A stretch of DNA of 63,894 nucleotides, taken from assembly GCA_964517065.1 (NCBI GenBank), contig CAZFBK010000004.1, positions 1-63,894 of the forward strand, in the 5' to 3' direction. The position numbers were made by a program, and so were the translations under genes. How positions within the stretch are numbered: the first letter of the stretch is position 1; each line of letters starts with the position of its first letter. The DNA is from an uncultured Gammaproteobacteria bacterium (lineage in GTDB: Bacteria > Patescibacteriota > Patescibacteriia > UBA1558 > 2-01-FULL-52-15). Shown piece after piece: positions 287-52,156 of the stretch. The notes beneath the pieces were generated by a model. The model worked only from the letters and a program-made list of their open reading frames with translations. It was not told the origin of the DNA and ran no database searches.

Positions 287-1309
287 ATGCCATCAGCAAA
301 AAAGATTCGTGTCGCTATCAACGGATTTGGTCGGATCGGACGGGCGGCTTTCAAAATTGCCCTGCAGAATAAACGCTTAGAAATTGTGGCCATTAATGAT
401 TTAACTGATGCGGCTACTTTAGCTCATTTACTGCAGTACGACACTGTCTATGGCAAATACGGCAAGAAAGTCACTGTCCGTGGTTCATCGCTGGTCATCG
501 ATAGAGGAGTTTACCCTATTATCGCGCAACCTGATCCGACGAAGTTGCCCTGGAAAAAATATAATGTCGATGTAGTGCTGGAGTGTACCGGACGCTTCGT
601 CAAAGATGGCGCAGCTATGGCGCATATCAAAGCCGGCGCCAAGAAAGTTGTAGTTTCAGCTCCGACCAAAGGCGGTAACGTCATGACCTATCTGTTCGGT
701 GTCAATGCCGAGAAATATCAAGGAGAGAAAATTATTTCCAATGCTTCCTGCACGACCAATTGTATTGCACCAGTAGCAGAAGTGATGCATCGTATTTTTG
801 GAATAGAGAAAGCTATGATGACCACTATTCATTCCTACACAGCAGAACAAAACTTAGTCGATGGTCCGCCACCGGGAGGTAAGTCCGGTGATATGCGACG
901 AGCACGCGCTGCCGCTGCCAACATTATCCCAACTACAACCGGTGCTGCTATCTCCACGACAGAAGTCATTCCGGAATTAAAAGGCTTATTCGACGGCTTA
1001 TCACTGCGCGTCCCAACCTTCTGTGGTTCATTAGCCGATTTCACCTTCGTAGTGAAGAAGCGCACAACAGTCGAAGCGGTGAACAAAGCTTTAATCTCAG
1101 CCAGTAAGACCGCGAAGATGAAGGGCGTCCTGATGTGTACTGATGAGCCGCTGGTTTCTTCTGATGTTATCGGCAATCCGTATTCATCTATAGTCGATCT
1201 GTCCTTGACACAGGTGGTTGACGGTACCATGGTGAAAGTAGTAGCCTGGTATGATAACGAGTTTGGCTATTCCAATCGTCTGGTGCAGATGATTAGCCAC
1301 GTGGCTTAA
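287..1309 (+). CDS. gap: Glyceraldehyde-3-phosphate dehydrogenase, type I
   Basis: 340 aa. It has the N-terminal NAD-binding motif INGFGRIGR and the catalytic-Cys motif SNASCTTNC, and ends in the WYDNEFGYS motif. Confidence 0.95.
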   Translation: MPSAKKIRVAINGFGRIGRAAFKIALQNKRLEIVAINDLTDAATLAHLLQYDTVYGKYGKKVTVRGSSLVIDRGVYPIIAQPDPTKLPWKKYNVDVVLECTGRFVKDGAAMAHIKAGAKKVVVSAPTKGGNVMTYLFGVNAEKYQGEKIISNASCTTNCIAPVAEVMHRIFGIEKAMMTTIHSYTAEQNLVDGPPPGGKSGDMRRARAAAANIIPTTTGAAISTTEVIPELKGLFDGLSLRVPTFCGSLADFTFVVKKRTTVEAVNKALISASKTAKMKGVLMCTDEPLVSSDVIGNPYSSIVDLSLTQVVDGTMVKVVAWYDNEFGYSNRLVQMISHVA

Positions 1310-8593: not shown

Positions 8594-9271
8594 ATGAATT
8601 TATACCCTTTCTCCCTATTATTAGTGGCTTTCATAAATTTTACCCTCGGTATCTATATATATTTCCGAAACAGAAAAAGCAATTTATATAAGATATTTCT
8701 AGGATTAACAACTTCGCTTGGTTTATGGTGCCTTGGTACTTTTTTTACGGTTCTTTATTCTGGAGATCTTAATCTATTTGGTTTCTTTGAACGTACTACA
8801 TTTGTCAGCGGTCTGTTGATCTCTCTATTTTTTTATATATTTTGCATCAACTTTCCCTATAAGAGCGCCTCATCTGGTAAATACCTCATTAGTTTATATG
8901 GTGCTATTATATTGATTTATACATACGTAATCTTTTTTACTACTTGGTTTGCACAAAACACAATATCTATAAACTCCTACACGACTTTGCAGCATAATGA
9001 TACATGGTTTATTTGTTGGGTGATTGCTTTTCTTCTACCACTTGTTGCTGGACTGCTTCAGCTATTTTATAAATTTAAAGCGACAGATGGTATTTATCGT
9101 GAATATTTATTAACCTTGTTGTTGGTCGCCGCCTTACCCATCCTTTTCAGCTTGTATTTCGATGTTTATCTGGTAGGATTGGAAAATTATCAATATAATA
9201 GTATATCTCCATTTTCATCTTTGCTTTTTGATTTTGCTATTTTAAGAATGATTTTAATTAAACGTCAATAG
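8594..9271 (+). CDS. Stand-alone 7TM membrane protein, paralogue 1 (like a histidine-kinase N-terminal 7TM domain)
   Basis: 225 aa and polytopic. The FRNRKSNLYKIFLGL...W block is shared with the next two ORFs and with the N-terminus of the kinase at 16329. Confidence 0.7.
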   Translation: MNLYPFSLLLVAFINFTLGIYIYFRNRKSNLYKIFLGLTTSLGLWCLGTFFTVLYSGDLNLFGFFERTTFVSGLLISLFFYIFCINFPYKSASSGKYLISLYGAIILIYTYVIFFTTWFAQNTISINSYTTLQHNDTWFICWVIAFLLPLVAGLLQLFYKFKATDGIYREYLLTLLLVAALPILFSLYFDVYLVGLENYQYNSISPFSSLLFDFAILRMILIKRQ

Positions 9272-9276
9272 TTTAT

Positions 9277-9963
9277 ATGGATCAAAGTATATTCGCGCTA
9301 CAACTAATCGGTCTTGCACTGGCAACTATCTTAAATTTGACTCTTGGGTTATTTGTTTTTTTTCGAAATCCAAAGGATTTAATATATAAGATTTTTTTAG
9401 CTCTAGCAGTTTCATTGGCTATTTGGTGTGCATCTATTTTTTTTGATTTATACTTTTACAATATTCCAGATCTATTGAATTTTTTTGATAGATTGCCATT
9501 TATTAGTGGCCTATTGATAGCTTTATTTTTTTACTTGTTTGCATTTCTTTATCCATACAAAAGCTCATCTATTTTTAAGTCAGCAATTTTGATTTATAGT
9601 GGAGTCATATTAGTATTTACTTACATTATATTTAGCTCGCTTTTTTTTATAGAAAATACGCAAAATTTTAATTTACCATTGCGTGCACCTAATCCAGCAA
9701 CCTATATAATTTATTCCGTAGTACTTGTAACTCCATTTATACTAGGTCTTTGGCAGCTTTATAGAAAGATGCGTGATGGTGACGGAGTATATCGCCAGGG
9801 TTTTCCTTTTTTTATTTCTATTGTTGCTATTGTAATTGCTTTGAGTTTCTTTTTTAATTTATTTTTGGCCGGGGTAAATAATAATTCCTTCATATCTGTA
9901 GGCCCTATTTCATCCCTGCTCTTTATTTATGCCATCATGCGCATGATAATTTCTAAGGAATAA
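9277..9963 (+). CDS. Stand-alone 7TM membrane protein, paralogue 2
   Basis: 228 aa, roughly half identical by eye to 8594-9271 (FFRNPKDLIYKIFLAL, FFYLFAFLYPYKSSS). Confidence 0.7.
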   Translation: MDQSIFALQLIGLALATILNLTLGLFVFFRNPKDLIYKIFLALAVSLAIWCASIFFDLYFYNIPDLLNFFDRLPFISGLLIALFFYLFAFLYPYKSSSIFKSAILIYSGVILVFTYIIFSSLFFIENTQNFNLPLRAPNPATYIIYSVVLVTPFILGLWQLYRKMRDGDGVYRQGFPFFISIVAIVIALSFFFNLFLAGVNNNSFISVGPISSLLFIYAIMRMIISKE

Positions 9964-9967
9964 AGTC

Positions 9968-10654
9968 ATGTTGATACAAGATTTACTAATAATTTTTACA
10001 GCTGGCATTAGCTTTGCCGTTGGGTTACTAATTGTTATGAGGGATAGACACGCGATGGTCAATATTATGTATTTTTTATTGACTATTTTCATGTCTTCTT
10101 GGGCGATCTCCCTGCTTATGTTTCGAACATACGAAGCTAACGATGTTGCTGAATTATTTGGTCGCTTCAGCTACATAGCAGGATTATTAATGGTCGTCTT
10201 TTTCTATATATTCACCAGATATTTCCCATATAGAGATCGTATGATTAGTAGAATAACAATAGCTTTCTTAGTGCTGATCTCAGCTATAACCATCTATATA
10301 ATGTTGTTTACTGATGTTCTAGTTAGTCGAGTGGTTGTTATCAACGGTGTTGTCTCTATGGTGACAAATCCATTTGTGCACGGCGCGTATGGTTTAATGC
10401 TACTGACACTTCTTATTTTGGGTATTGCGAACTTATTTCTCAAAAAACATAACAGCGGCGGGGATCACAGGAAGCAAATAGATTCGCTTTTAAGGGTGAG
10501 TTTAGTGGCTGGTATTTTTGGTGCAGTGTTTGATATTTTTCTGCCTATATTTGGTGATTATAGTTGGAATTGGTTAGGGCCGCAATTTTTAGTACTACTA
10601 TCCGTAGCGGTTGGTATGATTATTTATTCTCATAAGTTCACAGTACATGGGTAA
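9968..10654 (+). CDS. Stand-alone 7TM membrane protein, paralogue 3 (more divergent)
   Basis: 228 aa with the same topology and the motif FFYIFTRYFPYRD. Confidence 0.65.
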   Translation: MLIQDLLIIFTAGISFAVGLLIVMRDRHAMVNIMYFLLTIFMSSWAISLLMFRTYEANDVAELFGRFSYIAGLLMVVFFYIFTRYFPYRDRMISRITIAFLVLISAITIYIMLFTDVLVSRVVVINGVVSMVTNPFVHGAYGLMLLTLLILGIANLFLKKHNSGGDHRKQIDSLLRVSLVAGIFGAVFDIFLPIFGDYSWNWLGPQFLVLLSVAVGMIIYSHKFTVHG

Positions 10655-22287: not shown

Positions 22288-25200
22288 ATGAACCCTCTTA
22301 TTAACCAATCACTTACTTCTATGAAACGCAGCAATCAGACTCTGCTTCGTGTCAGTATTTCACTGTTCGTTGTCTCGTTGATCGTTATGCCTTTGGCGCC
22401 TGTATGGGCGAGGGAGGCTACTACAGCTGAGCCGGCTGTAGTAGCAAATGATTCTGCCCCGACTGTGGCAGAAGTTGCCGCTCCAGCAGTGGATACGACT
22501 GAATCAGTGAAAACAACTGACGGTCAACAAAATCCTGGTGATGAAATAAATACAGGCGGCAGCGAGCAACCAAATCCTGGTGCTGCTATCTTTTCAGCTA
22601 AACAACCAAATAAATTTGAAATTGGAAAAAATGGACAAGCGCAGGTTGTGGAATCAACCGGCGCTTTTAGCTATTCCTACCCTCTAGAGATTCCCAAAGG
22701 CAGAAATGGTTTACAACCATCATTAGCCTTAACCTATAATAGTCAGCGCAATAATAAAGATTCGCTATATGGTTTGGGTTGGGATCTTGATATTCCTTAT
22801 GTTGAGAGATCAGCACGGCAGGGAACAGAAAAGAGATACACAAATTTTGATTTCACTTTAAATTTTCCCGGTGGGGGAAATTTAGTGCCTCTCTCTGTTG
22901 ATGTTAACGGGTATGGTACCTATGGTTCTGAAGTTGAAAGCCAATTTAATAAAATTGAATGGCTCAGTAGTAAAACGTGGAAGATTACGGACAAGAGTGG
23001 TATTGTCTATACCTTTGGTACGGACGCAGCTAGTCGTCAGGATGATCCGAATGACAGTACACATATATATCGTTGGATGCTGCAGGAGGTGCGTGATACC
23101 AACGATAATTTTGTTCGTTACGAATATTTGAAAGATTCCGGCGCGATCTATCCGAAAGCTATCTATTATACGGGGAGTGGATCAACTGATGGTCTCTACA
23201 AGGTTATCTTTGATCCCATATACTCTGGACCAATAGCCACACGTCCCGATATTACAACTAGTAACGATGCGGGCTTTGGTATTACTACCAAATACACGAT
23301 TAATTCTATACAAGTGCTCGTCGGTGGAGTCGGAAAGAAGAAGTATGATGTAGAAACGATACAGGGAGAGGCTGGTAAGACTGTGGTCAGTAGGATTAAA
23401 GAAGCGGGTAGAAATGGCACCACCTGGGACTACTTACCAGCCACAGATTTTGAATATGGTACGTCATCAAAACAATGGACCACGGATCCTAATTACCAAG
23501 TGCCTTTTGAATTTGAATTCTATGGTCAGCAAAATAGCCAGCAATACAATATCTTTGCTTTTCTCTCTATGGACGTCAATGGGGATGGGTTAACTGATCT
23601 GTTGTACAGTAGTCAAGATTGTCCTTGGGAAATTGACTTAAGGACCTATATCAATAATGGTAACAACGGGTGGTCTACGACAACTGATTGGCAGTTGCCT
23701 TTCGACTTTCCTCTACGGGGAAGAACTTGCACCGGTTATAAGTGGAATTATCAAAACCGCTTTATGGTTGCCGATCTCAACGGTGATTTACGAGATGACT
23801 TCGTTGTTTCATTTGTAGTTTCCGAGGTTGAAACAAAAAAAGTATATATAAGCAATGGCGAGAATGGCTGGACCTTAGATCCAAACTGGACCATACCATT
23901 TAATTTTGGGGACTTCTATTATGACGGAGGGACAATTAAACTTTATAGCCCGAAATATAATCTTTTTGATGTGAATGGTGATAAGCGAGCTGATTTTGTC
24001 GAAGCTTATTATAATGATGACACCCATCAATTCATTCATAATGTTTATATTAATAATGGTGTAAATGGATGGACTGTAGATCCGAGCTGGACCGTACCTA
24101 TTGATTTTGCAATGTATGGACAGGGTAATGTTAAAGATTATAGTGCTAACTATCGCTTAGGAGATGTTAATGGTGATGGCTTAACAGATATTATGTATTC
24201 ACGTTATGAGCAGACTATTGATTCTGATGTGCGTCAAGTATTTATCAATAATGGAAAAAATGGTTGGACTCTTGATCCTAGTTGGCAGATTCCATTTCTT
24301 TTCTCTCAGTACTCCATTGGAGGCTCAGAAACGGATTTCGGATTTAGATTTAAAATGTTAGATATTAATGGAGACGGTTTGAGCGATTTTATTGAATCAT
24401 ATCATAGTTATTGGGCAGGTGATTCTGATATTAAAAATGTCTACATCAATAATGGTCATGGTGAATGGGTAATTGATAGTGCCTATAATATCCCTTTTGT
24501 ATTCGGGGTCTATGAAAGTAATAATAGTACATCTGATCATAATCCACGTTATCGCATGTTTGACGCTGTTGGCAATTTGAGTGTGAATTATCTAAGTTCC
24601 TATGTTGATGAATATCGTAATGATCAGGGCAACTCTGTGAAAGTTCTAGATCAAGCTCCCAGTTGGAATAAATTAAAGAGCATTAAACGTCTGAATCAAA
24701 CAATTATTAGTGCCGACTATGCAGCTTCGGCTCAACTCAAAGATCAAAATCAAAACCTGTTGAATCCTAAAGCCGTTGTGAATGTGCCGGTGGTTTCAAC
24801 TGTCACCTATAATGACGGTCTGGGTCATCAGCAGACTAGTAATTATAGTTATGAAGCTGGCAGCTATTATATAGGTAATTCTCTTAAGCAGAATAAATTC
24901 ACCGGTTTTGGCAAAGTGACGAAGACAGAGAGCGATAATAAGATTACAACGTATTATCATCAAGGTGGTGGTCTCGATGGTGCTGCTCTCGGTGAATATC
25001 AGGATAGCTATGCTAAGATTGGACAATCATTCCGCCAAGAGATTCGTAATGCTTCAGGACAATTATTACAACAAAGCGTTACCAAGGTTGACTCTGCGAC
25101 TTTAGCTGATGGCAGACAATTCCCAACTGTCGCACGTACCACTCAAACAATATTTGGTGCTACGACAAAATCACAGGCTACCCAGTATCAGTATGATGGT

Positions 25201-28200
25201 GTTGGTAATGTTTTACAGGAACAGAATTTAGGGTTAGTGACGGCCAATACTAATACTGGTGATGTCACTGATACTCTAATGGGCGACGAGAAAACCACCA
25301 CCTATGCCTATGCTCTGAATACCGGCAAGCATATCCTCGGCGTACCAAAGACGAAGACTATCAGTAACACGGGGGAAACTAAATCTCAAGATTTCTACTA
25401 TGACACCTATCCTGAGCTCGGAGCGCTGGATAAAGTAAATCTGACCAAAGAAGATTTGAAAGTTAATGTTGTTGATATCGAGACTACGTATAACAATTAC
25501 GGTTTACCTCTGACCAAGAAAGATCCGAAAGATACCACAGCAGTTAGTCTGACGTACGATGTGAATAATCTCTTCGTCACGACCACCACTGATGCTTTGT
25601 CTCGTAAGACAGTGACCAAATACGATCCGGCTACTGGACAACTATTGTATTCTCGCGATCCGAACGGCTATCAAGAAAAAAATACTTATGATGCTTTTGG
25701 CCGATTGACCAAGAAAGAAGTTTCTGATGCCACCAATGTTACTACCTTGAATACCAAGCAGGAAATAACCTATCAGGATACAACTTTCCCGAATTACACT
25801 GAAGTCAAAGATTATTTCAAAGCTGGTAGTTACACTACGTCACGGGAATACTACGATGGTCTTGGTCGGGTGATTCAGAGTGATAAGTCTGATGTCACCG
25901 GACAGTATATTGTTAGTTATAAGCAATACGATAGCCAAGGCAGAGTAGCGAAAGAAACTCTGCCGGCTTTCACCAGTACGATCAGCTACAACCCCGCACC
26001 AAGCTTCAGTACAGCCAAGACGTATACCTATGACGCTTTGGACCGCGTACTGACAGAGGTTACGCCGACCGGTACGACCAGCTATGCGTATGACGGTTTG
26101 GTGACTACTATCACCGACCCTCGTAATAAAGTGAAGAAATTGACTAAAGATGCTTTTGATAACTTAGTAAAAGTTGAAGAGTTTAATAGTGGCTCCACCT
26201 ATACGACGGTCTACGAATATACACTGACCAATAAGCTGAAGAAGATCACCGACGCGCTCGGTAATATCCGCACCTTTACCTATGATGCGCTGGATAATCT
26301 AACGCAGCAGGATATGGTGCATAAGTCTTCTGTCGCCAACCCAGCTCACTGGACCTATACCTACGACAAAAATGGCAACGTCCTAAGTAAGGCTGATCCA
26401 AAGTCACAAACAACAAACTATAGCTATGACGCGCTCAATCGTTTATTGCAGGAGAATTTTACCGGCAAGACCGGTATTGAGTACGCGCTGACCTATGATC
26501 AAGGTAGTGGACAGCTGGGTCGTCTGACGCACGTTGTGGGCAGTGACGGTTTAATTACTGACTACACCTATGACAAGCAAGGTAAACCCTTGACCGTCAC
26601 GCGTACTATCGATGGCACCAGCTATGTCTTGACCTATACCTACGATTGGAACGGTAATGTCACGTCTATTACGTATCCGGAAGGAGAGCGGGTGGATTAT
26701 CTTTACAATTCTGCCGGACAGATCAATCAAGTGAATAAAGTGAAGAATGGTGTGACTACCGTTTTAGCTCAAGGTGTGACCTATTCACCACTTGGTCAGA
26801 TTACCCATTTGCAGCGTGGTAATAATGTCACGACTGATTATACCTATGATGCCAATCAGAGTTATCGTCTGACGCGTCTACGCACAGTGAGCGGTTCTGT
26901 AGTGTTGCAGGATATCGCCTATACCTATGATGCGAATGGTAACATCTTGACACTCATTGATACTTCACAGACTGCACTAGCAAAGAGCGTGACCTATATC
27001 TATGACGATCTTAATCGTCTGACATCAGCTGCGGTCACTGGCTCTGGCTCTGGTGCCAACTATACCCAAACCTACAGCTATGACGCTACGGGTAATATGC
27101 TGACGAACTCCGCTGTCGGTACCTATGCCTATACCTTAGACAATCCACAACAGGCTCGTACTATGGGCGCTACCACCTATACCTATGATGGTAATGGCAA
27201 CGTCAATTATATAAATTCTGATTTCCAGAATTACGACTGGCGCGATCGCATGAACTATAGTCGTTTGGCTGGCTCAGCTGATCATATGGAGTATACCTAT
27301 GATCATACCAACCAACGGGTGAAGAAACATTCAGTTGTCACACCTCCGCCACCTCCAGGTGATTGTGAGAATCATCCAGACCAGTGCCCTGATCCAATCT
27401 TCGGTATTCCGGTAGGTATCACACCTCCGAATCCGAAGTTACCGACTCCGATTGAAGTGGTTCTTCCAGAACCAGAAGTTGGAAGTTTACGGTTACCCGC
27501 CTCGCCAGAGACGAGTCGTGGCGGGGAAGTTGAAGATCCAGCGACAGTGGCTTCTTCTACACCGGCGGTCTCTATTCAGACACTTTCCTCTACATCAACA
27601 GAATCTTTAACCTTAGAGCCGACGGAGATACTACCGGTAGGAGTTTTCGAGATATCTACGACTACGCCCCAATTTGCCTCCGATTCTAACTCCGATCTCC
27701 CAACTCCCAACTTCGAACCTGCTACTTCGACTGATCCTCTTGTTTCACCTGATCCCGTGATAACACCAACGTCAACTGAATCTAGCTTCGAACTCCCAAC
27801 TCCCAACTTCTCCGATGCTACAACCACAGACGCCAATCTCTCATTAGAAAACCCAACTCCCGATACTGCGCCTTCAACTGGCGACGTCATTACCTACTAC
27901 ATCGACAAATACTACGAAAAGCAGTGGAATGGCGTAGCTCGTAATCACTACTTCTTAGGCAACATTAACCTCGCTGTCGATGTTTTGTCCGGTACGAATA
28001 CTGGTGTATACTATGTATTGTCCGATCATCTTGGATCGAGTTCTCTGACAACTAACCCTTTTGGCAACATGATAGACCGTACGGAGTATGCTCCTTATGG
28101 CTCTATTGTAGCTACTGCTGCTACTCAGAATATTGGCAATAACTATAAGTTTACGGGGAAAGAAGCTGACGCAGAGAACAACCTTCAGTACTTTGGTGCT

Positions 28201-29001
28201 AGATATTACGATAACCGTGTTGGCAAATTTACTGCTATAGATCCTTATGGACTGCAAGTCAGTAAAGTAATAGGTATGCTATCCGACCCTCAGAGTCTGA
28301 ATGGCTATGTATATTCTAGAAATAACCCCGTTATATTAGTTGACCCTGATGGTAGAGACTGGCATACATTCGGCCAAGGCTTAGCTAGTCCCTTTGTCTA
28401 TGCATATCAGCATCCGTTAGAAACAGTAGCGACAGTTGCTGTGGTTGTGGCTGTTGCTTCAGTAGCTCCTGTTGCAGTTGCAGTTCTTGGCACGGTTGCT
28501 GGAAGTGTTGCTATCGGTACCGCTCTGGGGAACGCTGCTAATGCTCCCGATGCTAATACGAGAGACTATTATCTTGGAGCAGCTGTAAGTAATACAGCGT
28601 TGACCGCGGTTGCGGTTAAGGGCGCAGGAACACTTTCAACACCAAAACCAGTATCGGCAAGTACGGGTATTGCTGATGATGCCTTGGTTGTACGGGGTGG
28701 CGGTTTATCAAATCAGGCGGCTAATAGATTCAGAATTGAACCAAGTCGAACTCCGGGTGTAATTGGTTATTCCGCTCAGTGTAGTAATAGTTGTACTGAT
28801 ATTAGTCAATTGGGACAATTAGGAAAAAATCTTAAAAACCCCGAACTTTCAGTTGTAAAAGCCAAAGACATAAGAGCTTTTAAAGGAGATGTGATACCAA
28901 CACCGGGACTAGGCGACCACGTTACTATTACTGGATTAGATGGTAATCTTTCCAGTAAATTACCATGGGAGGCATTTAAGAATCCTAATCCACGTAAATA
29001 A
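22288..29001 (+). CDS. Giant secreted RHS/YD-repeat polymorphic toxin, fused TcB/TcC-like architecture
   Basis: 2237 aa. The N-terminus has a signal/anchor sequence. An SpvB-like block follows (GAFSYSYPLEIPKGRNGLQPSLALTYNS). Six FG-GAP-like blades of about 65 aa each carry D(V/I/L)NGDGLxD. Many YD repeats follow (YTYDALDR, YxYDxxGN). The RHS core carries YKFTGKE...YFGARYYD and DPDG at 28342-28353. Confidence 0.9.
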   Translation: MNPLINQSLTSMKRSNQTLLRVSISLFVVSLIVMPLAPVWAREATTAEPAVVANDSAPTVAEVAAPAVDTTESVKTTDGQQNPGDEINTGGSEQPNPGAAIFSAKQPNKFEIGKNGQAQVVESTGAFSYSYPLEIPKGRNGLQPSLALTYNSQRNNKDSLYGLGWDLDIPYVERSARQGTEKRYTNFDFTLNFPGGGNLVPLSVDVNGYGTYGSEVESQFNKIEWLSSKTWKITDKSGIVYTFGTDAASRQDDPNDSTHIYRWMLQEVRDTNDNFVRYEYLKDSGAIYPKAIYYTGSGSTDGLYKVIFDPIYSGPIATRPDITTSNDAGFGITTKYTINSIQVLVGGVGKKKYDVETIQGEAGKTVVSRIKEAGRNGTTWDYLPATDFEYGTSSKQWTTDPNYQVPFEFEFYGQQNSQQYNIFAFLSMDVNGDGLTDLLYSSQDCPWEIDLRTYINNGNNGWSTTTDWQLPFDFPLRGRTCTGYKWNYQNRFMVADLNGDLRDDFVVSFVVSEVETKKVYISNGENGWTLDPNWTIPFNFGDFYYDGGTIKLYSPKYNLFDVNGDKRADFVEAYYNDDTHQFIHNVYINNGVNGWTVDPSWTVPIDFAMYGQGNVKDYSANYRLGDVNGDGLTDIMYSRYEQTIDSDVRQVFINNGKNGWTLDPSWQIPFLFSQYSIGGSETDFGFRFKMLDINGDGLSDFIESYHSYWAGDSDIKNVYINNGHGEWVIDSAYNIPFVFGVYESNNSTSDHNPRYRMFDAVGNLSVNYLSSYVDEYRNDQGNSVKVLDQAPSWNKLKSIKRLNQTIISADYAASAQLKDQNQNLLNPKAVVNVPVVSTVTYNDGLGHQQTSNYSYEAGSYYIGNSLKQNKFTGFGKVTKTESDNKITTYYHQGGGLDGAALGEYQDSYAKIGQSFRQEIRNASGQLLQQSVTKVDSATLADGRQFPTVARTTQTIFGATTKSQATQYQYDGVGNVLQEQNLGLVTANTNTGDVTDTLMGDEKTTTYAYALNTGKHILGVPKTKTISNTGETKSQDFYYDTYPELGALDKVNLTKEDLKVNVVDIETTYNNYGLPLTKKDPKDTTAVSLTYDVNNLFVTTTTDALSRKTVTKYDPATGQLLYSRDPNGYQEKNTYDAFGRLTKKEVSDATNVTTLNTKQEITYQDTTFPNYTEVKDYFKAGSYTTSREYYDGLGRVIQSDKSDVTGQYIVSYKQYDSQGRVAKETLPAFTSTISYNPAPSFSTAKTYTYDALDRVLTEVTPTGTTSYAYDGLVTTITDPRNKVKKLTKDAFDNLVKVEEFNSGSTYTTVYEYTLTNKLKKITDALGNIRTFTYDALDNLTQQDMVHKSSVANPAHWTYTYDKNGNVLSKADPKSQTTNYSYDALNRLLQENFTGKTGIEYALTYDQGSGQLGRLTHVVGSDGLITDYTYDKQGKPLTVTRTIDGTSYVLTYTYDWNGNVTSITYPEGERVDYLYNSAGQINQVNKVKNGVTTVLAQGVTYSPLGQITHLQRGNNVTTDYTYDANQSYRLTRLRTVSGSVVLQDIAYTYDANGNILTLIDTSQTALAKSVTYIYDDLNRLTSAAVTGSGSGANYTQTYSYDATGNMLTNSAVGTYAYTLDNPQQARTMGATTYTYDGNGNVNYINSDFQNYDWRDRMNYSRLAGSADHMEYTYDHTNQRVKKHSVVTPPPPPGDCENHPDQCPDPIFGIPVGITPPNPKLPTPIEVVLPEPEVGSLRLPASPETSRGGEVEDPATVASSTPAVSIQTLSSTSTESLTLEPTEILPVGVFEISTTTPQFASDSNSDLPTPNFEPATSTDPLVSPDPVITPTSTESSFELPTPNFSDATTTDANLSLENPTPDTAPSTGDVITYYIDKYYEKQWNGVARNHYFLGNINLAVDVLSGTNTGVYYVLSDHLGSSSLTTNPFGNMIDRTEYAPYGSIVATAATQNIGNNYKFTGKEADAENNLQYFGARYYDNRVGKFTAIDPYGLQVSKVIGMLSDPQSLNGYVYSRNNPVILVDPDGRDWHTFGQGLASPFVYAYQHPLETVATVAVVVAVASVAPVAVAVLGTVAGSVAIGTALGNAANAPDANTRDYYLGAAVSNTALTAVAVKGAGTLSTPKPVSASTGIADDALVVRGGGLSNQAANRFRIEPSRTPGVIGYSAQCSNSCTDISQLGQLGKNLKNPELSVVKAKDIRAFKGDVIPTPGLGDHVTITGLDGNLSSKLPWEAFKNPNPRK

Positions 29002-31296: not shown

Positions 31297-32465
31297 AACT
31301 ACGAACATTACAAAGTATTCCGGTGAAGAAGCTACGTGGCAGTCGTGTGCTGGTGCGTTTGGATTTGAACGCGCCTATCGTCAATGGTAGATTGGAGTCT
31401 GCTGATCTCTGGAAGCTGAAGTCATCAGTCAAAACCATCGACTATCTCCAGCGATATGGTGCGCGGATTATTATCGTCTCGCATCTCGGACGTCCGGACG
31501 GCAAGAAAGATCCTCAGACCAGTCTGAAACCGATTTTGAAAAAGTTTAGTCAAATGATCGGACAGAAGATTGAAGTTTGGACGAAACATCCAGGAAAGTT
31601 GGAAGTTGAAAGTAGGAAGTTGGAAGAAGGACAAGTCGCTGCTCTGGAGAATATCCGCTGGCACAAAGAAGAGGAATCTTGCAATCTGACATTTAGTAAA
31701 CAATTGGCCAAGCTGGCAGATATCTATGTCGATGATGCTTTTGGTGTCATTCAGCGGCCACATGCTTCAAACTATGGCGTCACGAAATACCTACCAAGCT
31801 ATGCCGGTTTTTTACTTGAATATGAAGTGAAACAGCTGTATAATCTAATACCCCGAGCTGATAGACCGATCGTAGCTATCATGGGTGGTAGTAAGATCAG
31901 TAGCAAAATGGTGCTGATCAAGAAACTGTTGAAACAAGTTGATTATGTGCTTTTCGGCGGAGCTCTGGCCAATAATCTCTTGCAAGCCAAAGATATCGGT
32001 ATCGGTAAATCTCTGGTAGATAGTGATGCCAAAGTGTTACATCAATATCTGGTTAGCAACAAAATCCGTCTGCCAGTCGATGCGCGAGTGGCCACCAGCC
32101 TTGATAAGCCAAGTAAGATCGTAGCCATTACCAAAGTTGCTTCACTGGATCATATTTACGACATCGGACCGGATACGGTGGAACTCTATAGCCAGATTAT
32201 CCGACAAGCGAAAACAGTGATCTGGAATGGCCCATTAGGATTGTTTGAAGATCCACGCTTTGGCAAAAGTACCCGTGAATTAATCCAGATCTTGTCAGAC
32301 AGTAAGGCTAAGGCCTATGTCGGAGGCGGGGAGACGGTCAAGGCGGTGTTGCAAAGTAGACTGGAAGACACCCTGCACTTCGTTTCCACCGGAGGAGGAG
32401 CAATGTTGAGCCTGCTGGAAGATACTGACCTGCCGGCCTTGCAAGCCTTAGTTATTAAAAAATAA
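31293..32465 (+). CDS. pgk: Phosphoglycerate kinase
   Basis: 390 aa with the RLDLNAP, SHLGRP and GGGAM/STGGGA motifs. Confidence 0.95.
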   Translation: MKLRTLQSIPVKKLRGSRVLVRLDLNAPIVNGRLESADLWKLKSSVKTIDYLQRYGARIIIVSHLGRPDGKKDPQTSLKPILKKFSQMIGQKIEVWTKHPGKLEVESRKLEEGQVAALENIRWHKEEESCNLTFSKQLAKLADIYVDDAFGVIQRPHASNYGVTKYLPSYAGFLLEYEVKQLYNLIPRADRPIVAIMGGSKISSKMVLIKKLLKQVDYVLFGGALANNLLQAKDIGIGKSLVDSDAKVLHQYLVSNKIRLPVDARVATSLDKPSKIVAITKVASLDHIYDIGPDTVELYSQIIRQAKTVIWNGPLGLFEDPRFGKSTRELIQILSDSKAKAYVGGGETVKAVLQSRLEDTLHFVSTGGGAMLSLLEDTDLPALQALVIKK

Positions 32466-41001: not shown

Positions 41002-42032
41002 TAAAGAAAATTCTCATTGGATTGGTCATTATTATCGCTGGAGCAGTGGTCGTCGTAGTTTTCAGTTTGGTACAGTTCGTCCGGCCGGCCGGTAGTGCTA
41101 GAGAGATAGCTTTCACTATTGAGCCGGGAGAGGGCGTGCATGCGATCAGCCGTAATCTGAAGCAGGCAGGTTTAATCGATAGTTCGTTTATTTTTGAAAG
41201 TTATATTTGGCTCTTGCGCTCGGATCAGAAGATTATCGCCGGCCGCTATCAACTAAACCGAAATCAAAATATTCCCCAGATTACCAAAGCGATCATGGCC
41301 GGTCCGGATCAGCAGCCGGATCAGCTGACCTTTATCGAAGGTTGGAACCGCCATGAATACGCTGATGCGTTGACGAAGGCTGGATTTCACGGTGACGCCT
41401 TTTTGACCATTACGGCCTCGAGTACCCTCTGGCGTGATGACTACCAATTGACCGACGCTGTACCTCTCGGACATACGTTGGAAGGCTTCCTTTTCCCAGA
41501 CACCTATCAGGTAGCGCGAGATTCTGATGAGATTACTTTGGTTAGCAAGATGCTGGCGAATTTTGAACGTAAAGTTACTCCGCAGATGATTCAGGATATG
41601 ATCAAACAAAACAGATCACTGTACGAAGTGATCACGATGGCGTCTATTATCGAGAAAGAAGTGCCACAGGCCAGTGATAGGAAGATGATAGCTGATATTT
41701 TTTGGAAACGCCTCGAAGCAAATATCGGTCTCCAATCTGACGCTACGGTAAATTTCGCTAAATGTAGCCGGTCAGATGATTTTGTCGCCTGTGAGAAAAC
41801 CACGCGCTCGACTGCTTCTGATCTGCAGATTGACTCACCATACAATACGTATAAGTATCGTGGTTTGCCTCCAGGACCGATTAGCAATCCTGGATTAGAC
41901 AGTATCATGGCGACGCTGTATCCCACAGCCAATGATTATTATTATTTTCTTACTGATCTCAAAGGGAAGGTTTACTATGCTCGCAATCTCGAGGAGCATA
42001 AGAAGAATAGGGAGTTGTATTTAGGAAAGTAG
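40998..42032 (+). CDS. mltG: Endolytic murein transglycosylase (YceG family)
   Basis: N-terminal TM helix, then YceG-like EGFLFPDTY and ASIIEKE motifs. I prefer the ATG at 40998, which forms an ATGA overlap with the upstream stop. Confidence 0.85.
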   Translation: MIKKILIGLVIIIAGAVVVVVFSLVQFVRPAGSAREIAFTIEPGEGVHAISRNLKQAGLIDSSFIFESYIWLLRSDQKIIAGRYQLNRNQNIPQITKAIMAGPDQQPDQLTFIEGWNRHEYADALTKAGFHGDAFLTITASSTLWRDDYQLTDAVPLGHTLEGFLFPDTYQVARDSDEITLVSKMLANFERKVTPQMIQDMIKQNRSLYEVITMASIIEKEVPQASDRKMIADIFWKRLEANIGLQSDATVNFAKCSRSDDFVACEKTTRSTASDLQIDSPYNTYKYRGLPPGPISNPGLDSIMATLYPTANDYYYFLTDLKGKVYYARNLEEHKKNRELYLGK

Positions 42033-42055
42033 GTTGGTAGAGTGGTAGTTTTGTA

Positions 42056-42082
42056 GGGATAGGTCGTGACCTGTCCCTTTTG
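42056..42082 (+). terminator. Intrinsic terminator after mltG
   Basis: GGGATAGGTC pairs with GACCTGTCCC, with one U.G that pairs only in + strand RNA, followed by TTTTGG. Confidence 0.55.
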
Positions 42083-42164
42083 GTTTAAAGCTTAGAGTTG
42101 AAAGATTAAAGTTAAAAGTGGTGCAACTGCTAACAACTATCAACTTACAACTTAAATCTAAAGT

Positions 42165-42217
42165 AAAAAAAGTGCGCCGCCCTTCTTTGCTTCTTGCGAA
42201 GCATTGAAGGACGGCGC
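42165..42217 (-). terminator. Nested intrinsic terminator of the GC-rich minus-strand unit
   Basis: The minus-strand RNA reads GCGCCGUCCUUC..GCUUC-GCAA-GAAGC..GAAGGGCGGCGC, then AC and U7 (42171-42165). The U.G pair and the GNRA loop exist only on the minus strand. Confidence 0.7.
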
Positions 42218-43302
42218 GCCGTTACTATTACCGGATCTGTCCGAGTCCCTTCCAGCCATGCGGCCGGAATGCGCGGGTTTGCCGCGACACAGGGATTACG
42301 GATACTGCAGTCCGGATACCTGACGTAGTCAGTATCAGCAACGGGTACTGCGCAGGCGTTCGCGAGCAAGACGCTCGTGAAACCCGTTAGAACAATATCA
42401 TATATTCACTGTTTGTGAGCAGAGTCGATACCGGGGGTTTGGTGTCTTTCGAATTTGACCGGTATCGTTTACAAAGAACTACTAGGGCGGATCTCGCGGC
42501 ACGTCGACCTCCATGAAGGGGCCAGACTAGGGGCGGCAGTGCCCCTGGCGACAAGTCCGGCATAAGCGCCGGGTCGAATCCCGAGCGAAGGCGGCGAAGG
42601 CCTCGGCGAGCTCGGGGTAATGCTGACGCTCAGGTGCAGCGTCAAAAGATTTGATTTGCTGGCGGTGGCTAACCCGCCTCAGCCATGTCCGCAAGGAGCG
42701 GAACCGTCGTCACGGAGGGTGCCGAGAGGTCACTTTGTACCTCCAACGATCGATACGGTGATATCTACGGCGGGGTTGCCGGCGTGCAAAGCCCGGGTGC
42801 GAAGGCGATTGACCATCCGCGACTCGGGGTGATATTTCCTTTTTTTAAATTTGTTTGTTTGGTTGCGTGTCCATGCCTGAGTCCGACACGCGAGGACTTT
42901 TGACTTTCAGACGGATGAGCTCCGCATGCAGAGCTGACTCCGATCCCATGGCCGTGGGATGCCTACATTTCAACGGAGTAGGTAACCGTATGTGCGTGGA
43001 CGCTTCGTTGGCTAACGTCCTGAGCCCGCGACCTAGAGTAGGATCGCGTCTACGTTCCCTCGTAAGGGAACACTAACGTTATCGGAAAACCTTCTCTTCC
43101 ATCGCCTTGCCTCCTCCGATGGAGTTGGGCGGGTTCTGGATTCCGGTGATCCGACGTGGATCACCGGCCGCGCGCGGGGCTGATCAGCCCCTGCCGCCGC
43201 TTTCGATATAGGAAATCATGAGGTGCGTGAGGACATTCATAGGGGATTTCTCCTTTTCTGATGTCTTACACCATACTCTGCCGGGCCGAGTGCCAGTAGC
43301 AT
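42165..43302 (-). ncRNA. Candidate large structured non-coding RNA (about 1.1 kb, GC-rich, family unknown)
   Basis: It is bounded by a near-consensus promoter and a terminator on the minus strand. It contains only short, multi-frame, non-protein-like ORFs and many perfect 7-10 bp local helices. Its base composition is strikingly different from the flanks. Confidence 0.45.
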
Positions 43303-43309
43303 TAACGGC

Positions 43310-43338
43310 ACTGTAGCATGTATCAAGATTCTTGTCAA
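43310..43338 (-). promoter_or_regulatory. Near-consensus sigma-70 promoter driving the GC-rich unit
   Basis: On the minus strand: TTGACA (43338-43333), a 17-nt spacer, then TACAGT (43315-43310). Confidence 0.6.
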
Positions 43339-43452
43339 GCCATCAAGCGTAATATTTGTCAATATTTGGCTAAGATTAGGTAAAAGTTGATAGTTGAAAG
43401 TTGTAAGTTAGAAAGGGATTCCTGACAACTTTCAACTTACAACTGATAATAA

Positions 43453-43480
43453 TTGACTTTATCTAAAATTCTGGTATACT
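43453..43480 (+). promoter_or_regulatory. Promoter of the rplJ-rplL operon
   Basis: TTGACT (43453-43458), a 16-nt spacer ending in TGg, then TATACT (43475-43480). Confidence 0.5.
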
Positions 43481-43502
43481 GCCTATACAAATCAATCAGT
43501 CG

Positions 43503-43630
43503 CCACAGACAGTGGGTGCACCAAGCAAATTGGGGCTTAATCAGGACGTCAAACGTCCAGACCTACCGAGGCCAAACCTAGCTTTATTAGCTAGAAACCT
43601 TATATGTCTGTGGAAATCACAGATTTTTTG
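43503..43630 (+). promoter_or_regulatory. Ribosomal protein L10 leader-like attenuator
   Basis: A long-range helix forms between CCACAGACA (43503-43511) and TGTCTGTGG (43605-13), enclosing GGGGCUUAAUCAGGAC. A terminator CTGTG-GAAAT-CACAG plus T6 (43608-43629) shares 43608-43612 with that helix, so the two structures exclude each other. Confidence 0.5.
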
Positions 43631-43746
43631 TTTAAAATGCAGTACTTAGTAACTAGTAATCAGTAATTAGTCCAAAACTTTACCGATTCCTAATTACTAA
43701 TTTCCAATTTCTAGTTACTAATCCCTAATTACTAATTACTACTCTA

Positions 43747-44268
43747 ATGCCAAAATCCAAAGCCCAGAAGCAAGAGGAGTTGGCCATTGTCCAATCCAAG
43801 GTCAATGCCAGCCAAGGTGTAGTCTTCACTGCGGACCAAGGTCTGACGGTGAAAGACAGCGAAGATCTGCGCAAGAAGCTCCGCGCTGAGCAAGCTGGTT
43901 TGCAAGGCATCAAAAAAACCTTACTGATCAAAGCTCTGGCAGAAGCTAATATTACCAGCGCTGATATCCAAGGAACCGGTAATGTCGCTGTAGCTTTCTC
44001 TGAGACCGATGCTGTCGCTCCAGCTCGTATCGTCCAGAGTATCGCCAAGACCAACGATAAGTTAGTCATTCTTGGAGGATTGCTAGACGGAATGTTCATT
44101 ACGAAAGAAAAAGTCATTGCCTTAGCCAAGTTACCAAGTCGTGATGAATTGCTGGCGCAGACCGTTGGTACTCTACAGGCTCCTATCACTGGTTTTGTCC
44201 GCGTTATGGCTGGTAATCTACGGGGATTGGTGACGGTATTGAACGCTGTGAAGGAGAAGAAGGTTTAA
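43747..44268 (+). CDS. rplJ: 50S ribosomal protein L10
   Basis: 173 aa, L10-like throughout, immediately upstream of rplL. Confidence 0.95.
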   Translation: MPKSKAQKQEELAIVQSKVNASQGVVFTADQGLTVKDSEDLRKKLRAEQAGLQGIKKTLLIKALAEANITSADIQGTGNVAVAFSETDAVAPARIVQSIAKTNDKLVILGGLLDGMFITKEKVIALAKLPSRDELLAQTVGTLQAPITGFVRVMAGNLRGLVTVLNAVKEKKV

Positions 44269-50527: not shown

Positions 50528-50668
50528 ATTCGTAATGTAGAAGAAGTTATTCCTAATTTCTAGTTACTAATTACCCCTATTCTTCATATTTGACATAATG
50601 TAAAAATTATGTTATTTTATTATATTCCAAATTTTTTGGCTTGTTCTCTCACAAATGAGGGTTTCTCA

Positions 50669-51136
50669 ATGAAACCGAAATACTGCTATATCTTTCGTGG
50701 TCTGCCTGGGAGCGGTAAGTCTTACTTGGCGGAGAAGCTGAGGGTACTGCTTGATGCTACTATTGTTAGCGCTGACCTGTTCTTTGGGCGCTATAACGGT
50801 GGTAAATACGATGCCTCACAGTTGTGTCTGGCCCACGCATACTGTATGACTGATTTCAGTTTGGCTTTGCGCCGAGGGCAGGCAGTCATCGTTGACAACA
50901 CAGGATCTCGCATCTGGGAGTATAACAAATACGCTCAGATGGCGACTGCTTATGGCTACGAAGTTCGTATCATCGAGATGGTTCATGAGTCGTTTGAAGA
51001 TCTGGTTCGATTCCACCAGCGCAACCAGCATGACGTCAGTTGGCCCAAGATGCTGACGATGGCTATGCGCTGGCAGGAAGATTTTCGTGCACTGATCATC
51101 CGCGGTTCTGATATCAACGTCTCACACAGGAGGTAG
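50669..51136 (+). CDS. P-loop ATPase/kinase (AAA_33-like)
   Basis: Walker A motif GLPGSGKS directly after the ATG at 50669, with GAGGG 8 nt upstream. GC-rich codon usage. Confidence 0.6.
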   Translation: MKPKYCYIFRGLPGSGKSYLAEKLRVLLDATIVSADLFFGRYNGGKYDASQLCLAHAYCMTDFSLALRRGQAVIVDNTGSRIWEYNKYAQMATAYGYEVRIIEMVHESFEDLVRFHQRNQHDVSWPKMLTMAMRWQEDFRALIIRGSDINVSHRR

Positions 51137-51139
51137 TAC

Positions 51140-51721
51140 ATGTTCCGCAATGTCCGTAGTTCGCTCTGGCTCGTGCTCGTCGCGTTCTTGTTTGTCGGTT
51201 GTGGTCAGGACTCGTGTCCGACCGCGCCGAAGCCGGGAGTTCTGGACTTTGAGTTCCAGGACATGGTCATGTCGCACAATTTCATGGGGCATACCGCCGT
51301 TTTCATGTCTGACGGTAGCGAGGTGCGCGTGACGCGCTACAGTCAGGAGTTCTCGAACTCTATGGACGTTCTGCCGCGCCTCGGTGGTCATACCTTCGGG
51401 GTGATCATCAGCGATCTTCAGGGTCGCACGCTGGCGGAGTCGTACGGCGTTTACTGTGGCGGCTTCACCATCACGGAGAACGTCGCGACCGTCGAGCTGC
51501 GCCGTGAAGTCTTCAGCTTCGGTGAAGCACTTGACCGCATGAGTCGGCTGAAGTCGTATGTCCTGAATCATACGCTGGATTTCGAGATTCCGGCTGATGG
51601 TCAGCCGAAAACCTTCGGAACCTACAGCACTTTGTTGTCGCATTCAATTCCCGTTGACGGACTCGTCGGCTGTGCGCTCCGCAGCGGCAACATCGACAAT
51701 CCGGCTACGGGCTGTCAGTAG
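51140..51721 (+). CDS. Putative lipoprotein
   Basis: Signal peptide with a lipobox-like LFVGC. AGGAGG lies 8 nt upstream. GC-rich. Confidence 0.55.
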   Translation: MFRNVRSSLWLVLVAFLFVGCGQDSCPTAPKPGVLDFEFQDMVMSHNFMGHTAVFMSDGSEVRVTRYSQEFSNSMDVLPRLGGHTFGVIISDLQGRTLAESYGVYCGGFTITENVATVELRREVFSFGEALDRMSRLKSYVLNHTLDFEIPADGQPKTFGTYSTLLSHSIPVDGLVGCALRSGNIDNPATGCQ

Positions 51722-51745
51722 CAACATTTCGAAAGGATGTGTTCA

Positions 51746-52156
51746 ATGACGGAAACTGTCCTGAAGAAGAACTGGCACGGACCGCTGACGGTCGATAACA
51801 TCGAAGGGGTTGTGACCTTACTTCGACAACTGCTCGGTGGACGACGTTATACTTTCATCAGTGCTCATGAGAGGTATAAGTTCAAGCCCGAAGCGCGAAC
51901 CGGTCAACGTCTGGGCAAGGGCGGTCCGACAAAGGAGGTTGGGTTTCACATCGATGAAGATCGGGCTCGTGCCAGTATGTTCATTCATGACAGCTACGGA
52001 ATCTGCACTCTTGCGAGCAGTTTGAAAGATGGCGATTCCTATACGTCGGAAGAGAACCCATATCTCGAGTTTCGTGAGAATCAGGTTACGATTACTCACC
52101 AATCCGATTCTGGGCACAAGCTGTACTGGATGTATGTTCTGGAAGACGAGGAATAG
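51746..52156 (+). CDS. Hypothetical protein
   Basis: 136 aa from the ATG at 51746, which is preceded by GAAAGGA (the track start is 51737). GC-rich. Confidence 0.45.
   Translation: MTETVLKKNWHGPLTVDNIEGVVTLLRQLLGGRRYTFISAHERYKFKPEARTGQRLGKGGPTKEVGFHIDEDRARASMFIHDSYGICTLASSLKDGDSYTSEENPYLEFRENQVTITHQSDSGHKLYWMYVLEDEE

Follow-up and report, generated by a model that had tools for sequence, protein, structure and literature searches.

A probable RNA gene family restricted to Komeilibacteria-like bacteria of the Candidate Phyla Radiation, with Shine-Dalgarno-led mini-ORFs that may engage ribosomes

Several large bacterial RNAs, among them OLE, GOLLD and ROOL, were found as long GC-rich intergenic regions (PMC8723152, PMC11109978). 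A region alike in its setting, that is, long, rich in guanine plus cytosine (GC), gene-free within an AT-richer genome, provided with its own promoter and terminator and devoid of a conventional open reading frame (ORF), lies between mltG and the divergent rplJ-rplL operon at positions 42165-43338 of contig CAZFBK010000004.1, whose whole 63,894-nucleotide (nt) stretch is called the window here. A sequence-only reading of the window had put this block forward as a separate minus-strand transcription unit and as a novel large structured RNA comparable to those three. It is very probable that the minus strand of the block holds a genuine RNA gene, conserved and not encoding a protein, and on the best reading of the sequences it would represent an undescribed RNA family, about 1.14 kb long in the window, limited to a Komeilibacteria-like clade of the Candidate Phyla Radiation (CPR) and without a conventional protein product. 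The comparison with OLE, GOLLD and ROOL fails for the inside of the molecule. Those RNAs have conserved sequence and a multi-helix architecture, and this one has neither across subclades: its interior cannot be aligned even with that of a relative whose ribosomal protein L10 is 90% identical, its length varies about twofold (0.65-1.2 kb), it is confined to one CPR subclade, and it carries mini-ORFs led by Shine-Dalgarno (SD) motifs.

These mini-ORFs bring a second group of described systems into the comparison. The tetrapeptides R-A-P-P and R-D-P-P are members of the RAPP-like class of ribosome-arrest motifs, RAPP being described as short-circuiting the peptidyl-transferase centre (PMC10951233, PMC12992588). 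The set comprises RAPP, RGPP, RAPG and RAGP, with RDPP and RSPP partly permissive (PMC12992588), and RDPP, described as partly arrest-competent, is reported to be among the most avoided tetrapeptides in bacterial proteomes, including those of Patescibacteria (PMC10951233, PMC12992588). In the RAPP-type arrest peptides (ApdA, ApdP and ApcA; SecM with RAGP), as in one mini-ORF of the RNA described here, a motif of the type R-[A/D]-P-P stands at the C-terminal end of a small ORF. Taken as a whole, the statement made here, a real clade-restricted RNA gene family together with a model of ribosome-engaging mini-ORFs, has in our judgement somewhat better than an even chance of being right; that the function of the RNA centres on ribosomes engaging its mini-ORFs, as their sequences may suggest, is by itself less likely than not.

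The block reaches 56.2% GC against 43.1% in the remaining window, and the highest-GC 1.1-kb stretch of the 64-kb window falls within it (0.572; window mean 0.433, standard deviation 0.045), so the GC-rich block between the mltG terminator and the rplJ promoter is borne out, and both flanking features were located where the sequence-only reading had implied. The longest ORF in the block has 74 amino acids (aa) (42145-42369, minus strand). All six frames contain 10-17 stops each, and all three stop codons are present; since each stop codon type interrupts every frame, an alternative genetic code cannot restore a long ORF and was ruled out. A six-frame Pfam search of the block returned nothing, a concatenated six-frame query against 5.8 billion protein clusters gave nothing at E<=0.01, and no long ORF was found in the homologous units. 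With stops in all frames and no Pfam or protein similarity, a protein gene or a decayed pseudogene was discarded. The earlier claim that the block holds no credible ORF stands for long ORFs; it does not stand for short ones, in view of a conserved SD-led small ORF and an excess of mini-ORFs.

Known RNA families were searched as the sequence-only reading had advised. With 4227 Rfam models, the block gave no match either when cmscan was applied to the window at gathering thresholds or when 41900-43800 was scanned at E<=10, and an Rfam scan of three homologous loci (L002, L014 and L015) found only the leader of the L10 gene. ARAGORN detected no tRNA or tmRNA in the block. Thus, OLE, GOLLD, ROOL, HEARO, raiA, RNase P, tmRNA, 6S, SRP, rRNA and group I/II introns were rejected as identities, having no Rfam match.

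The limits of the unit are given by its transcription signals (Table 1), and in this respect the earlier claim of a separate minus-strand unit was upheld, promoter and terminator being conserved across homologues. The promoter that had been read from the sequence is the best promoter-like match in the region, and its -35 and -10 elements are kept in register in all homologues. The block upstream of it is near-invariant in L002, L014, L015, L031, L038, L039 and L040; in these relatives it consists of the palindrome GGCTAAnnTTAGCC plus AAATAT, placed exactly 22 nt before the -35, and the gap is followed by CTTGACAAgAA and then by the extended -10. The copy in Table 1 is the window's best match to the block motif, the sole other match with up to three mismatches lying inside mltG at 41750. 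From its conservation and position it is a candidate site for a regulator, or an UP-type site.

The transcript start can be placed at about 43302 from the position of the -10, and a hairpin (P1) occupies this position in every homologue. Its lower stem UUGCU/AGCAA is retained, with a change from G-C to G.U in the window and from C-G to U.G in L031, and its upper stem has been exchanged among homologues (CUG:CAG, GGC:GCC, CUGGC:GCCGG). At the other end, the nested terminator folds exactly as had been claimed, loop, U.G pair and U7 tail included (-34.9 kcal/mol, z = -8.3). In L002, L014, L015, L031, L039 and L040, the unit ends in a GC-rich hairpin followed by a U-rich stretch (U7-8, with an interruption in L040), and a U-tailed terminator is also present in the L012 fragment; the stem sequence differs from homologue to homologue while the position is kept. 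The strand is assigned as minus because the promoter is conserved and U-tailed terminators are found in every homologue. The tetraloops that had been offered as strand evidence did not serve this purpose: only 2 of the 19 tetraloop hairpins in five homologous RNAs are of the GNRA/UNCG type, about the chance rate, and the UACG loop at 43054-43071 is not retained in the closest relative, L038.

Table 1. Elements of the RNA unit and of its borders in the window
Feature	Position	Strand	Remark
Upstream conserved block ACCTAATCTTAGCCAAATAT	43362-43381	minus	near-invariant in relatives
Sigma-70-type promoter TTGACA-17-TGcTACAGT, extended -10	43310-43338	minus	consensus scan 10/12 plus TG
5'-terminal hairpin P1, inferred transcript start ~43302	43273-43302	minus	lower stem UGCU/AGUA, upper stem CUG/CAG
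Small ORF 1, MNVLTHLMISYIESGGRG (18 aa)	43184-43255; ATG 43240 to TGA 43184	minus	SD AAAGGAG at ~43255-43250
Hairpin, loop holds stop codon of small ORF 1	43176-43191	minus	perfect; z -2.5
10-bp perfect hairpin after small ORF 1	43143-43167	minus	z -4.3
Core shared with L038, contains mini-ORF 2	42871-43134	minus	84-100% identity in 50-nt windows
Core helices	43054-43071, 43027-43048, ~43017-42995, 42960-42943, 42935-42918, 42890-42872	minus	
Mini-ORF 2, MEEKVFR, SD GGAGGAGG	ATG 43102 to TAA 43079	minus	inside core shared with L038
Mini-ORF 3, MTSRHPP, SD GGAGGU	42710-42748; GTG 42733 to TGA 42710	minus	orthologous heptapeptides in L014, L039
Mini-ORF 4, MPRDPP, SD GGAGGU	42482-42516; GTG 42502 to TAG 42482	minus	RDPP directly before stop
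Intrinsic terminator	42165-42217	minus	nested 12+6 bp hairpin, GCAA loop, one U.G pair, U7 tail
Decayed heptad-repeat (AGTTGNA)n hairpin	42096-42152		between mltG terminator and RNA terminator; boundary mark, outside RNA
Heptad-repeat hairpin	43385-43444		separates RNA promoter from divergent rplJ promoter and L10 leader; boundary mark
rplJ promoter	43453-43480	plus	divergent from RNA unit
Ribosomal protein L10 leader (RF00557)	43485-43638	plus	separate neighbouring element, outside RNA unit

Homologous loci were gathered through relatives of L10 and mltG, the mltG homologues bearing source names from Candidatus Komeilibacteria. The arrangement of mltG, a gene-free block and rplJ-rplL recurs in at least seven other Komeilibacteria-like assemblies obtained independently (GTDB, JGI, NCBI, ENA and Logan), which supplies the homologues that the earlier reading had asked for. 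By amino-acid identity of L10, these are L038 (JGI, 94%), in which the unit is covered from the promoter to ~770 nt into the RNA, and, with complete units, L002 (a metagenome-assembled genome, MAG, from GTDB, 90%), L040 (Logan, 76%), L039 (NCBI, 72%) and L015 (a Komeilibacteria MAG from NCBI, 72%); two more were placed by mltG, L014 (JGI, 58%; complete) and L031/L032 (ENA, 54%; complete in L031). A partial unit is found in L012 and L033, and a short variant in L013. The RNA measures ~1138 nt in the window and 851, 845, 861, 1214, 920 and 650 nt in relatives, and the GC content of the unit is 51-58% in all lineages against 42-48% in their contigs. Promoter block, 5'-terminal hairpin, terminator position and raised GC are the constants of the whole family. 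The gap between mltG and rplJ is only 260-500 nt in two more distant CPR genomes (L007, L010), which indicates that the unit is a clade-specific insertion that was retained. An exact-protein look-up of the window's own mltG product and L7/L12 found neither on record.

The same material answers the suspicion that the block is an assembly chimera or artefact, as the sharp GC jump and the border repeats, which break other assemblies, might suggest. Seven independent assemblies from different projects share the architecture, and two of them align to the interior or the ends of the window's unit; a chimera is thereby ruled out, and the probability left to it is negligible.

The short variant deserves a description of its own. 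At 6896-7296 of L013, whose mltG is 82% identical, an AT-richer unit of ~330 nt occupies the same place, with a 5' hairpin, an SD and a 13-aa ORF (MSIARRESVTRRK), and hairpins; the contig stops at its promoter. In L040 alone among the relatives, a second small unit lies at ~160-385 (minus strand), where it separates the terminator of the main RNA from the 3' end of mltG, consisting of TTGACA-17-TATTCT, ~190 nt, and a GC hairpin followed by U6.

The promoter block also occurs outside this locus. A metagenome scan with the promoter-block pattern gave 12 matches, two of them with the full palindrome; the other ten were judged to be chance. In one of the two, the related metagenomic contig L018, block and promoter precede a tRNA cluster, and in the other (L020) a short terminated RNA, which suggests that this promoter type may also serve stable-RNA genes. 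The L018 cluster (9261-10370) has four called tRNAs and ~400 nt of unassigned RNA ahead of it; two tRNA-like stretches, at ~9940-10050 and ~10190-10290, were missed by both ARAGORN and Rfam and might be interrupted by intervening sequences. On the minus strand of L020 (10500-8950), the promoter block drives a terminated RNA of ~190 nt, after which come repeated GGGCGCGC..ATTCGAAA..GCGCGCCC hairpins and then two small membrane-protein ORFs with a common repeated 5' leader, AAUCCGCUUUAGGCGGAGAA.

Between its conserved ends, the body of the RNA folds beyond what its composition explains. With the terminator removed, and relative to dinucleotide shuffles, the minimum free energy (MFE) of the window's body has a z-score of -4.6, and those of four homologues are -5.2, -2.9, -7.3 and -6.8; the reverse complements reach -3.3, -3.0, -1.2, -5.3 and -3.9, so that the RNA strand is the stronger in each of these five. 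With L040 included, body z-scores lie between -2.9 and -7.3 in six RNAs. In folds of 150-nt segments, the strongest signals in the window's unit are the terminator and 43050-43275. The seven interior helices that had been listed all fold at their places, five of them clearly better than shuffles and two, 42580-42616 and 42521-42549, no better (z about -1).

A constrained core emerges from the comparison with L038. In segments of 50 nt, the core retains the identity given in Table 1 where rplJ retains 84.5% of its nucleotides and 60% at fourfold sites. The 10-bp helix just 5' of the core is kept in L038 through two double compensatory changes and one change from U-A to U.G, and helix 42890-42872 shows three wobble-preserving changes; the hairpin at 43176-43191 is not kept there. 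In the local helices, this non-conserved hairpin excluded, 8 of the 9 changed pairs stay paired. A test of substitutions over the whole MFE fold gave 10 pairs kept and 23 broken, and was set aside in favour of the local hairpins because long-range MFE pairs are unreliable and the 5' part is poorly aligned. Searched with nhmmer, the core matched only the window and L038, with nothing in L002 or the other loci.

Beyond the core, the body behaves, as judged from sequence comparison, as a set of modules, each possibly under selection, that are gained, lost, duplicated and shuffled between species. Global alignment of the interiors was uninformative, and the window and L002 have only short collinear islands in common, near the 3' end. 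L015 contains a 242-nt internal duplication, and a 19-nt motif, CCGCGCGUAGAUGAGCGCC, occurs in two copies in each of L014, L015 and L031, is present in L039 and L040 as well, and is missing from the window. The subclade-B module CCGCGCGUAGAkGwGCGC was likewise rejected as a family-wide mark, being absent from the window; four matches to it in viral contigs are chance occurrences in GC-rich coding DNA. An alignment-based fold of the module copies recovered only an invariant GCGC stem, and no covariance model was built from them. Taking into account the folding excess, the constrained core and the pair-preserving changes, the body is not simply neutral DNA. The sequence-only reading's novel large structured RNA therefore survives in part: there is no Rfam family, the fold is better than shuffles and some helices are compensatory, and a family-wide covariation model is lacking. 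The covarying multi-helix architecture of the "ornate" large RNAs was not found, covariation being seen only in local hairpins between close pairs.

It could still be thought that the block is foreign or junk DNA without function, located at a hot spot of recombination, either an insertion remnant or a GC-biased conversion tract, whose promoter block is kept only for the control of rplJ. The body does differ among close relatives, many contigs break at the locus, the L013 variant is short and AT-richer, and in the window the two heptad-repeat hairpins, 42096-42152 and 43385-43444, are direct-repeat partners flanking the unit. The second of these is an inverted repeat with arms 87% complementary, kept at the same position in L015 and L038. 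However, the heptad motif has a third site in the window (31597-31622) and is a general intergenic element; in L002 a different hairpin stands on the rplJ side, the heptad hairpin not being duplicated there, so that the pair in the window is not an attachment-site duplication. An integrated mobile element was rejected on this ground, together with the absence of an integrase or other ORF and of any match for the block in phage and plasmid DNA (blastn, distant mode). Terminators that are maintained with different stems, a core far more conserved than neutral sites and with compensatory changes, and the lack of phage, plasmid or protein matches speak for a maintained element, and make junk DNA highly improbable. 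Contigs L001, L012, L029/L030 and L033 end at or beside heptad repeats, which probably break assemblies.

An RNA gene that is kept in this manner carries, in addition, an unusual number of potential ribosome-start sites. Defining such a site as an SD-like motif followed 4-10 nt later by ATG, GTG or TTG, 21 were found in five RNAs, against 4.8 +/- 2.3 expected from 1000 dinucleotide-shuffle sets, none of which exceeded 14, and against 4 in the reverse complements. Their ORFs are very short: 13 of the 21 span 2-8 codons, against 1.07 +/- 1.05 in the shuffles (maximum 5); in the real sequences, 32% of the start codons of any kind begin an ORF of no more than 8 codons. AAAGGA is the top enriched hexamer common to all the RNAs, and the density of GGAGG/AGGAG, 7.0 per kb in the unit against 1.27 per kb on its strand, is the highest along the window.

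Small ORF 1, nearest the 5' end, keeps its SD, spacing and AUGAAUG in L002, L038 and L040, and its SD and AUG in L031 and L015. Its peptide is unconserved beyond MN(V), varies from 16 to 33 aa, and is missing in L014 and L039; residue Y11, which seemed conserved in four sequences, fails in L038 and L040 and was dropped. Two families further downstream show a codon-like pattern. Mini-ORF 3 reads GUG ACC UCU CGG CAC CCU CCG UGA in the window, AUG GUC UCG CAG CAC CCG CCG UAA (MVSQHPP) in L014 and AUG AUC UCU CGG CAC CCA CCG UAA (MISRHPP) in L039, that is, a family MxS[R/Q]HPP that retains start and stop and whose Ser and Pro codons differ at third positions; it is the sole interior element common to both subclades. 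Mini-ORF 4 reads GUG CCG CGA GAU CCG CCC UAG in the window, AUG CGC GAU CCG CCG UAG (MRDPP) in L038 and AUG GAU CGC GCU CCG CCU GCG UAG (MDRAPPA) in L002, a family M(x)R[D/A]PP in which 4 of the 5 substitutions in shared codons fall at third positions and are synonymous, and the indels preserve the frame; a C-terminal RAPP-like motif is thus present in all three. Synonymous-type changes are also seen in MKKKK[L/P]ARL (L002/L038), and each of the four mini-ORFs of L014 has an equivalent at the corresponding position in L039 (73% nucleotide identity).

In subclade B, the module motif GCGCGUAGAUGA gives stops in two frames, and module copies that differ by an indel still close their ORF (MSDSSARR versus MSDEIRA, MSVPSARR versus MIGIIRA, each ending at a stop). 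That copies keep a closed ORF in different frames and with different peptides points to the act of translation rather than to its product. Purifying selection on the modules, for local helices and for SD-led mini-ORFs of 5-8 codons, would be the best explanation of these patterns.

The same observations bear on whether the transcript might be a polycistronic micropeptide mRNA, encoding small ORF 1 and peptides of 5-16 aa, with the GC-rich remainder as untranslated spacer. The SD and AUG of small ORF 1, kept in most homologues, and the synonymous-type changes in the MxS[R/Q]HPP, R[D/A]PP and MKKKK[L/P]ARL peptides would fit such an mRNA. It is made improbable by the poor conservation of the small ORF 1 peptide and its absence from two homologues, by modules that close in differing frames with differing peptides (SARR-stop versus IRA-stop), and by the small size of the products, since peptides of 5-7 aa without partner genes are unlikely effectors; nor would a spacer hold 56% GC, a folding excess and compensatory helices.

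Equally improbable is a vestigial leader or attenuator, in which an ancestral promoter and arrest-peptide leader preceded a cargo gene, for example an FHA-like ORF, that the window's lineage has lost, leaving the leader to decay. A 102-aa FHA-like ORF does lie on the same strand just downstream of the RNA terminator in L014 (7175-7483, minus) and L039 (3280-3588, minus), its Pfam match to Yop-YscD_cpl (E = 1.2e-3) being below the curated cut-off; modules of SD mini-ORF plus hairpin resemble translational attenuators, and the body turns over fast. Nevertheless, lineages without cargo keep the promoter, the 5' hairpin, the terminator, the GC content and a strongly constrained core, a strong terminator and ~85 nt separate the RNA from the FHA ORF in L014, and the six-frame query detected no remnant of that ORF in the window, from which it is absent.

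With these readings weighed, we return to an RNA gene whose mini-ORFs would engage ribosomes. It may be proposed that transcription from a strong promoter with its conserved upstream block yields an RNA protected by the 5' hairpin and ended at the intrinsic terminator. Small subunits would load at the SD sites, an exception in this genome, where genes hardly ever rely on SD: in the window, only 4 of the 47 long ORFs (at least 150 aa) show an SD-like motif in the 18 nt ahead of a plausible start, the background being 5.5%, and the organism seems to initiate translation largely without SD. After a few codons of translation, ribosomes would pause or become stalled where the mini-ORFs end in Pro-Pro-stop, and the surrounding hairpins would control access to the SD/mini-ORF sites. 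The output could be the sensing or titrating of translation capacity, beside the divergent rplJL operon, or a ribosome-dependent remodelling and stabilisation of the RNA itself. We infer the expression, start and stability of the RNA, the translation of its mini-ORFs, the stalling and any downstream effect from the sequences. In its fullest form, the proposal would be of a new kind of ribosome-engaging RNA, a hairpin-gated array of SD-led, arrest-type mini-ORFs without cargo that parks or titrates ribosomes, or reports the status of EF-P, release factors or Pro-tRNA, and so tunes translation capacity together with rplJL; in this specific form it is speculative and rather unlikely.

Described systems resemble parts of this scheme. 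The ermC, cat and tnaC leader attenuators and the bar minigenes of lambda appear alike in combining an SD with a very short ORF followed by hairpins, and in them, as apparently here, where UAGAUGA gives a stop in either frame in subclade B, the act of translation rather than the peptide would be what is kept; unlike them, the present RNA has no cargo gene and places up to four or five modules in series in a 1-kb transcript resembling a stable RNA. Staphylococcus RNAIII (hld) is likewise hairpin-rich, with a small ORF near the 5' end, a divergent operon and fast evolution outside some hairpins; it differs in being shorter, and C-rich loops of the anti-SD type are not enriched here (24 observed, 29 expected). 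The CsrB/RsmZ sponges share a modular body that expands by repeats, as in the duplication in L015, fast evolution, A(A)GGA enrichment and a conserved palindrome upstream of the promoter, but the GGA motifs of the present RNA are mostly paired, with an unpaired probability of 0.17-0.23 against 0.38-0.40 overall. CsrB-like and RNAIII-like mechanisms were consequently left aside as unsupported, GGA not being loop-exposed and anti-SD-like motifs not being enriched.

A number of observations weigh against the proposal. As regards the body, z-scores are negative for the reverse complements too, and in L040 the two strands do not differ (-3.2, against -3.4 on the reverse complement). The identity of the core to L038 could reflect recent exchange rather than constraint, as L002 lacks the core; L014 and L039, aligned over their full length at 73% identity, show a mosaic of conservation in which pairing survives at only 9 of the 20 hairpin pairs that have changed; and the interiors do not align between subclades, so that covariation can be followed only within close pairs. 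As regards the mini-ORFs, low SD use in the window may mean that the ribosomes of this organism use SD little and that GGAGG has some other function. The majority of SD motifs are base-paired in the predicted folds (mean unpaired probability ~0.3), the Pro codons of mini-ORF 3 overlap a CCUCC able to pair with its own GGAGG, the window and L014 match only weakly in nucleotides at mini-ORF 3 (31 nt at 74% identity, with E = 0.027 from a search of small size), and each Pro-Pro-stop family rests on three sequences. Known RAPP peptides, moreover, are longer, need an N-terminal tunnel segment, are often part of a secretory or membrane protein, and stand upstream of a Sec/YidC or other gene that they regulate, whereas the mini-ORF 4 peptides have 5-7 aa and no tunnel, signal or membrane segment. 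No regulated downstream gene was found: there is no ORF before the window's terminator, and only a 16-aa ORF in L002 and L038. That several different mini-ORFs share one RNA also sets this case apart from the RAPP-type arrest systems.

Several of these points lend themselves to the main rival, a structured RNA of the kind meant by the sequence-only reading, wholly non-coding and serving as a scaffold, a protein-binding RNA or a ribozyme, in which SD motifs and mini-ORFs would be untranslated by-products of purine-rich helix strands and GC-rich composition. To the pairing of the SD motifs, the rare use of SD by the organism's genes and the overlap of the HPP codons with a CCUCC complementary to GGAGG, it can add a body that beats shuffles in all homologues and the compensatory changes in helices. 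Against it stand the dinucleotide shuffles, which do not yield the excess of SD, start and short ORF, and two mini-ORF families that keep start, stop and frame across indels and third-position changes; furthermore, a scaffold or ribozyme fits poorly with an RNA that has no conserved multi-helix architecture and no Rfam match, and whose interior is unconserved at 90% L10 identity. We consider this rival unlikely, although appreciably less so than the micropeptide mRNA, the vestigial leader or junk DNA.

Some features of the surroundings remain to be described. mltG ends at 42032 and is followed by its own terminator at 42055-42078 (plus strand). On the other side, the L10 leader upstream of rplJ scores 41.7 bits in the window, slightly below the Rfam gathering score of 44, and its copies in relatives score 50-52 bits; a TAATTAC-type heptad run lies at 43640-43720, just upstream of rplJ. 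Elsewhere in the window, a protein of 2237 aa encoded at 22288-29001 (plus strand) may be of the polymorphic-toxin type, to judge from its SpvB, FG-GAP and RHS-repeat domains. In GC content, the block described here is followed by 50600-51750 (~54%), which is coding; it contains an AAA_33/zeta-toxin-like ORF at 50609-51136, and the next ORF, at 51140, is among the few with a strong SD (CAGGAGGT).

The genomes of CPR/Patescibacteria are tiny, so that a unit of ~1 kb that is retained across a clade, gene-free, strongly promoted and GC-enriched, ought to be worth its cost. Descriptions of lineage-specific RNAs from these bacteria appear to be few, none having been found in a full-text literature search. 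On a conservative reading, the locus provides a new RNA family with clear boundaries, for which a covariance model can be seeded from the eight homologous loci, of which other assemblies supply seven. If the reading of the mini-ORFs were true, motifs of the RAPP class would occur outside the setting of a monitoring substrate upstream of a cargo gene, and the family would offer a concrete case of an RNA whose conserved feature is the loading and stalling of ribosomes.

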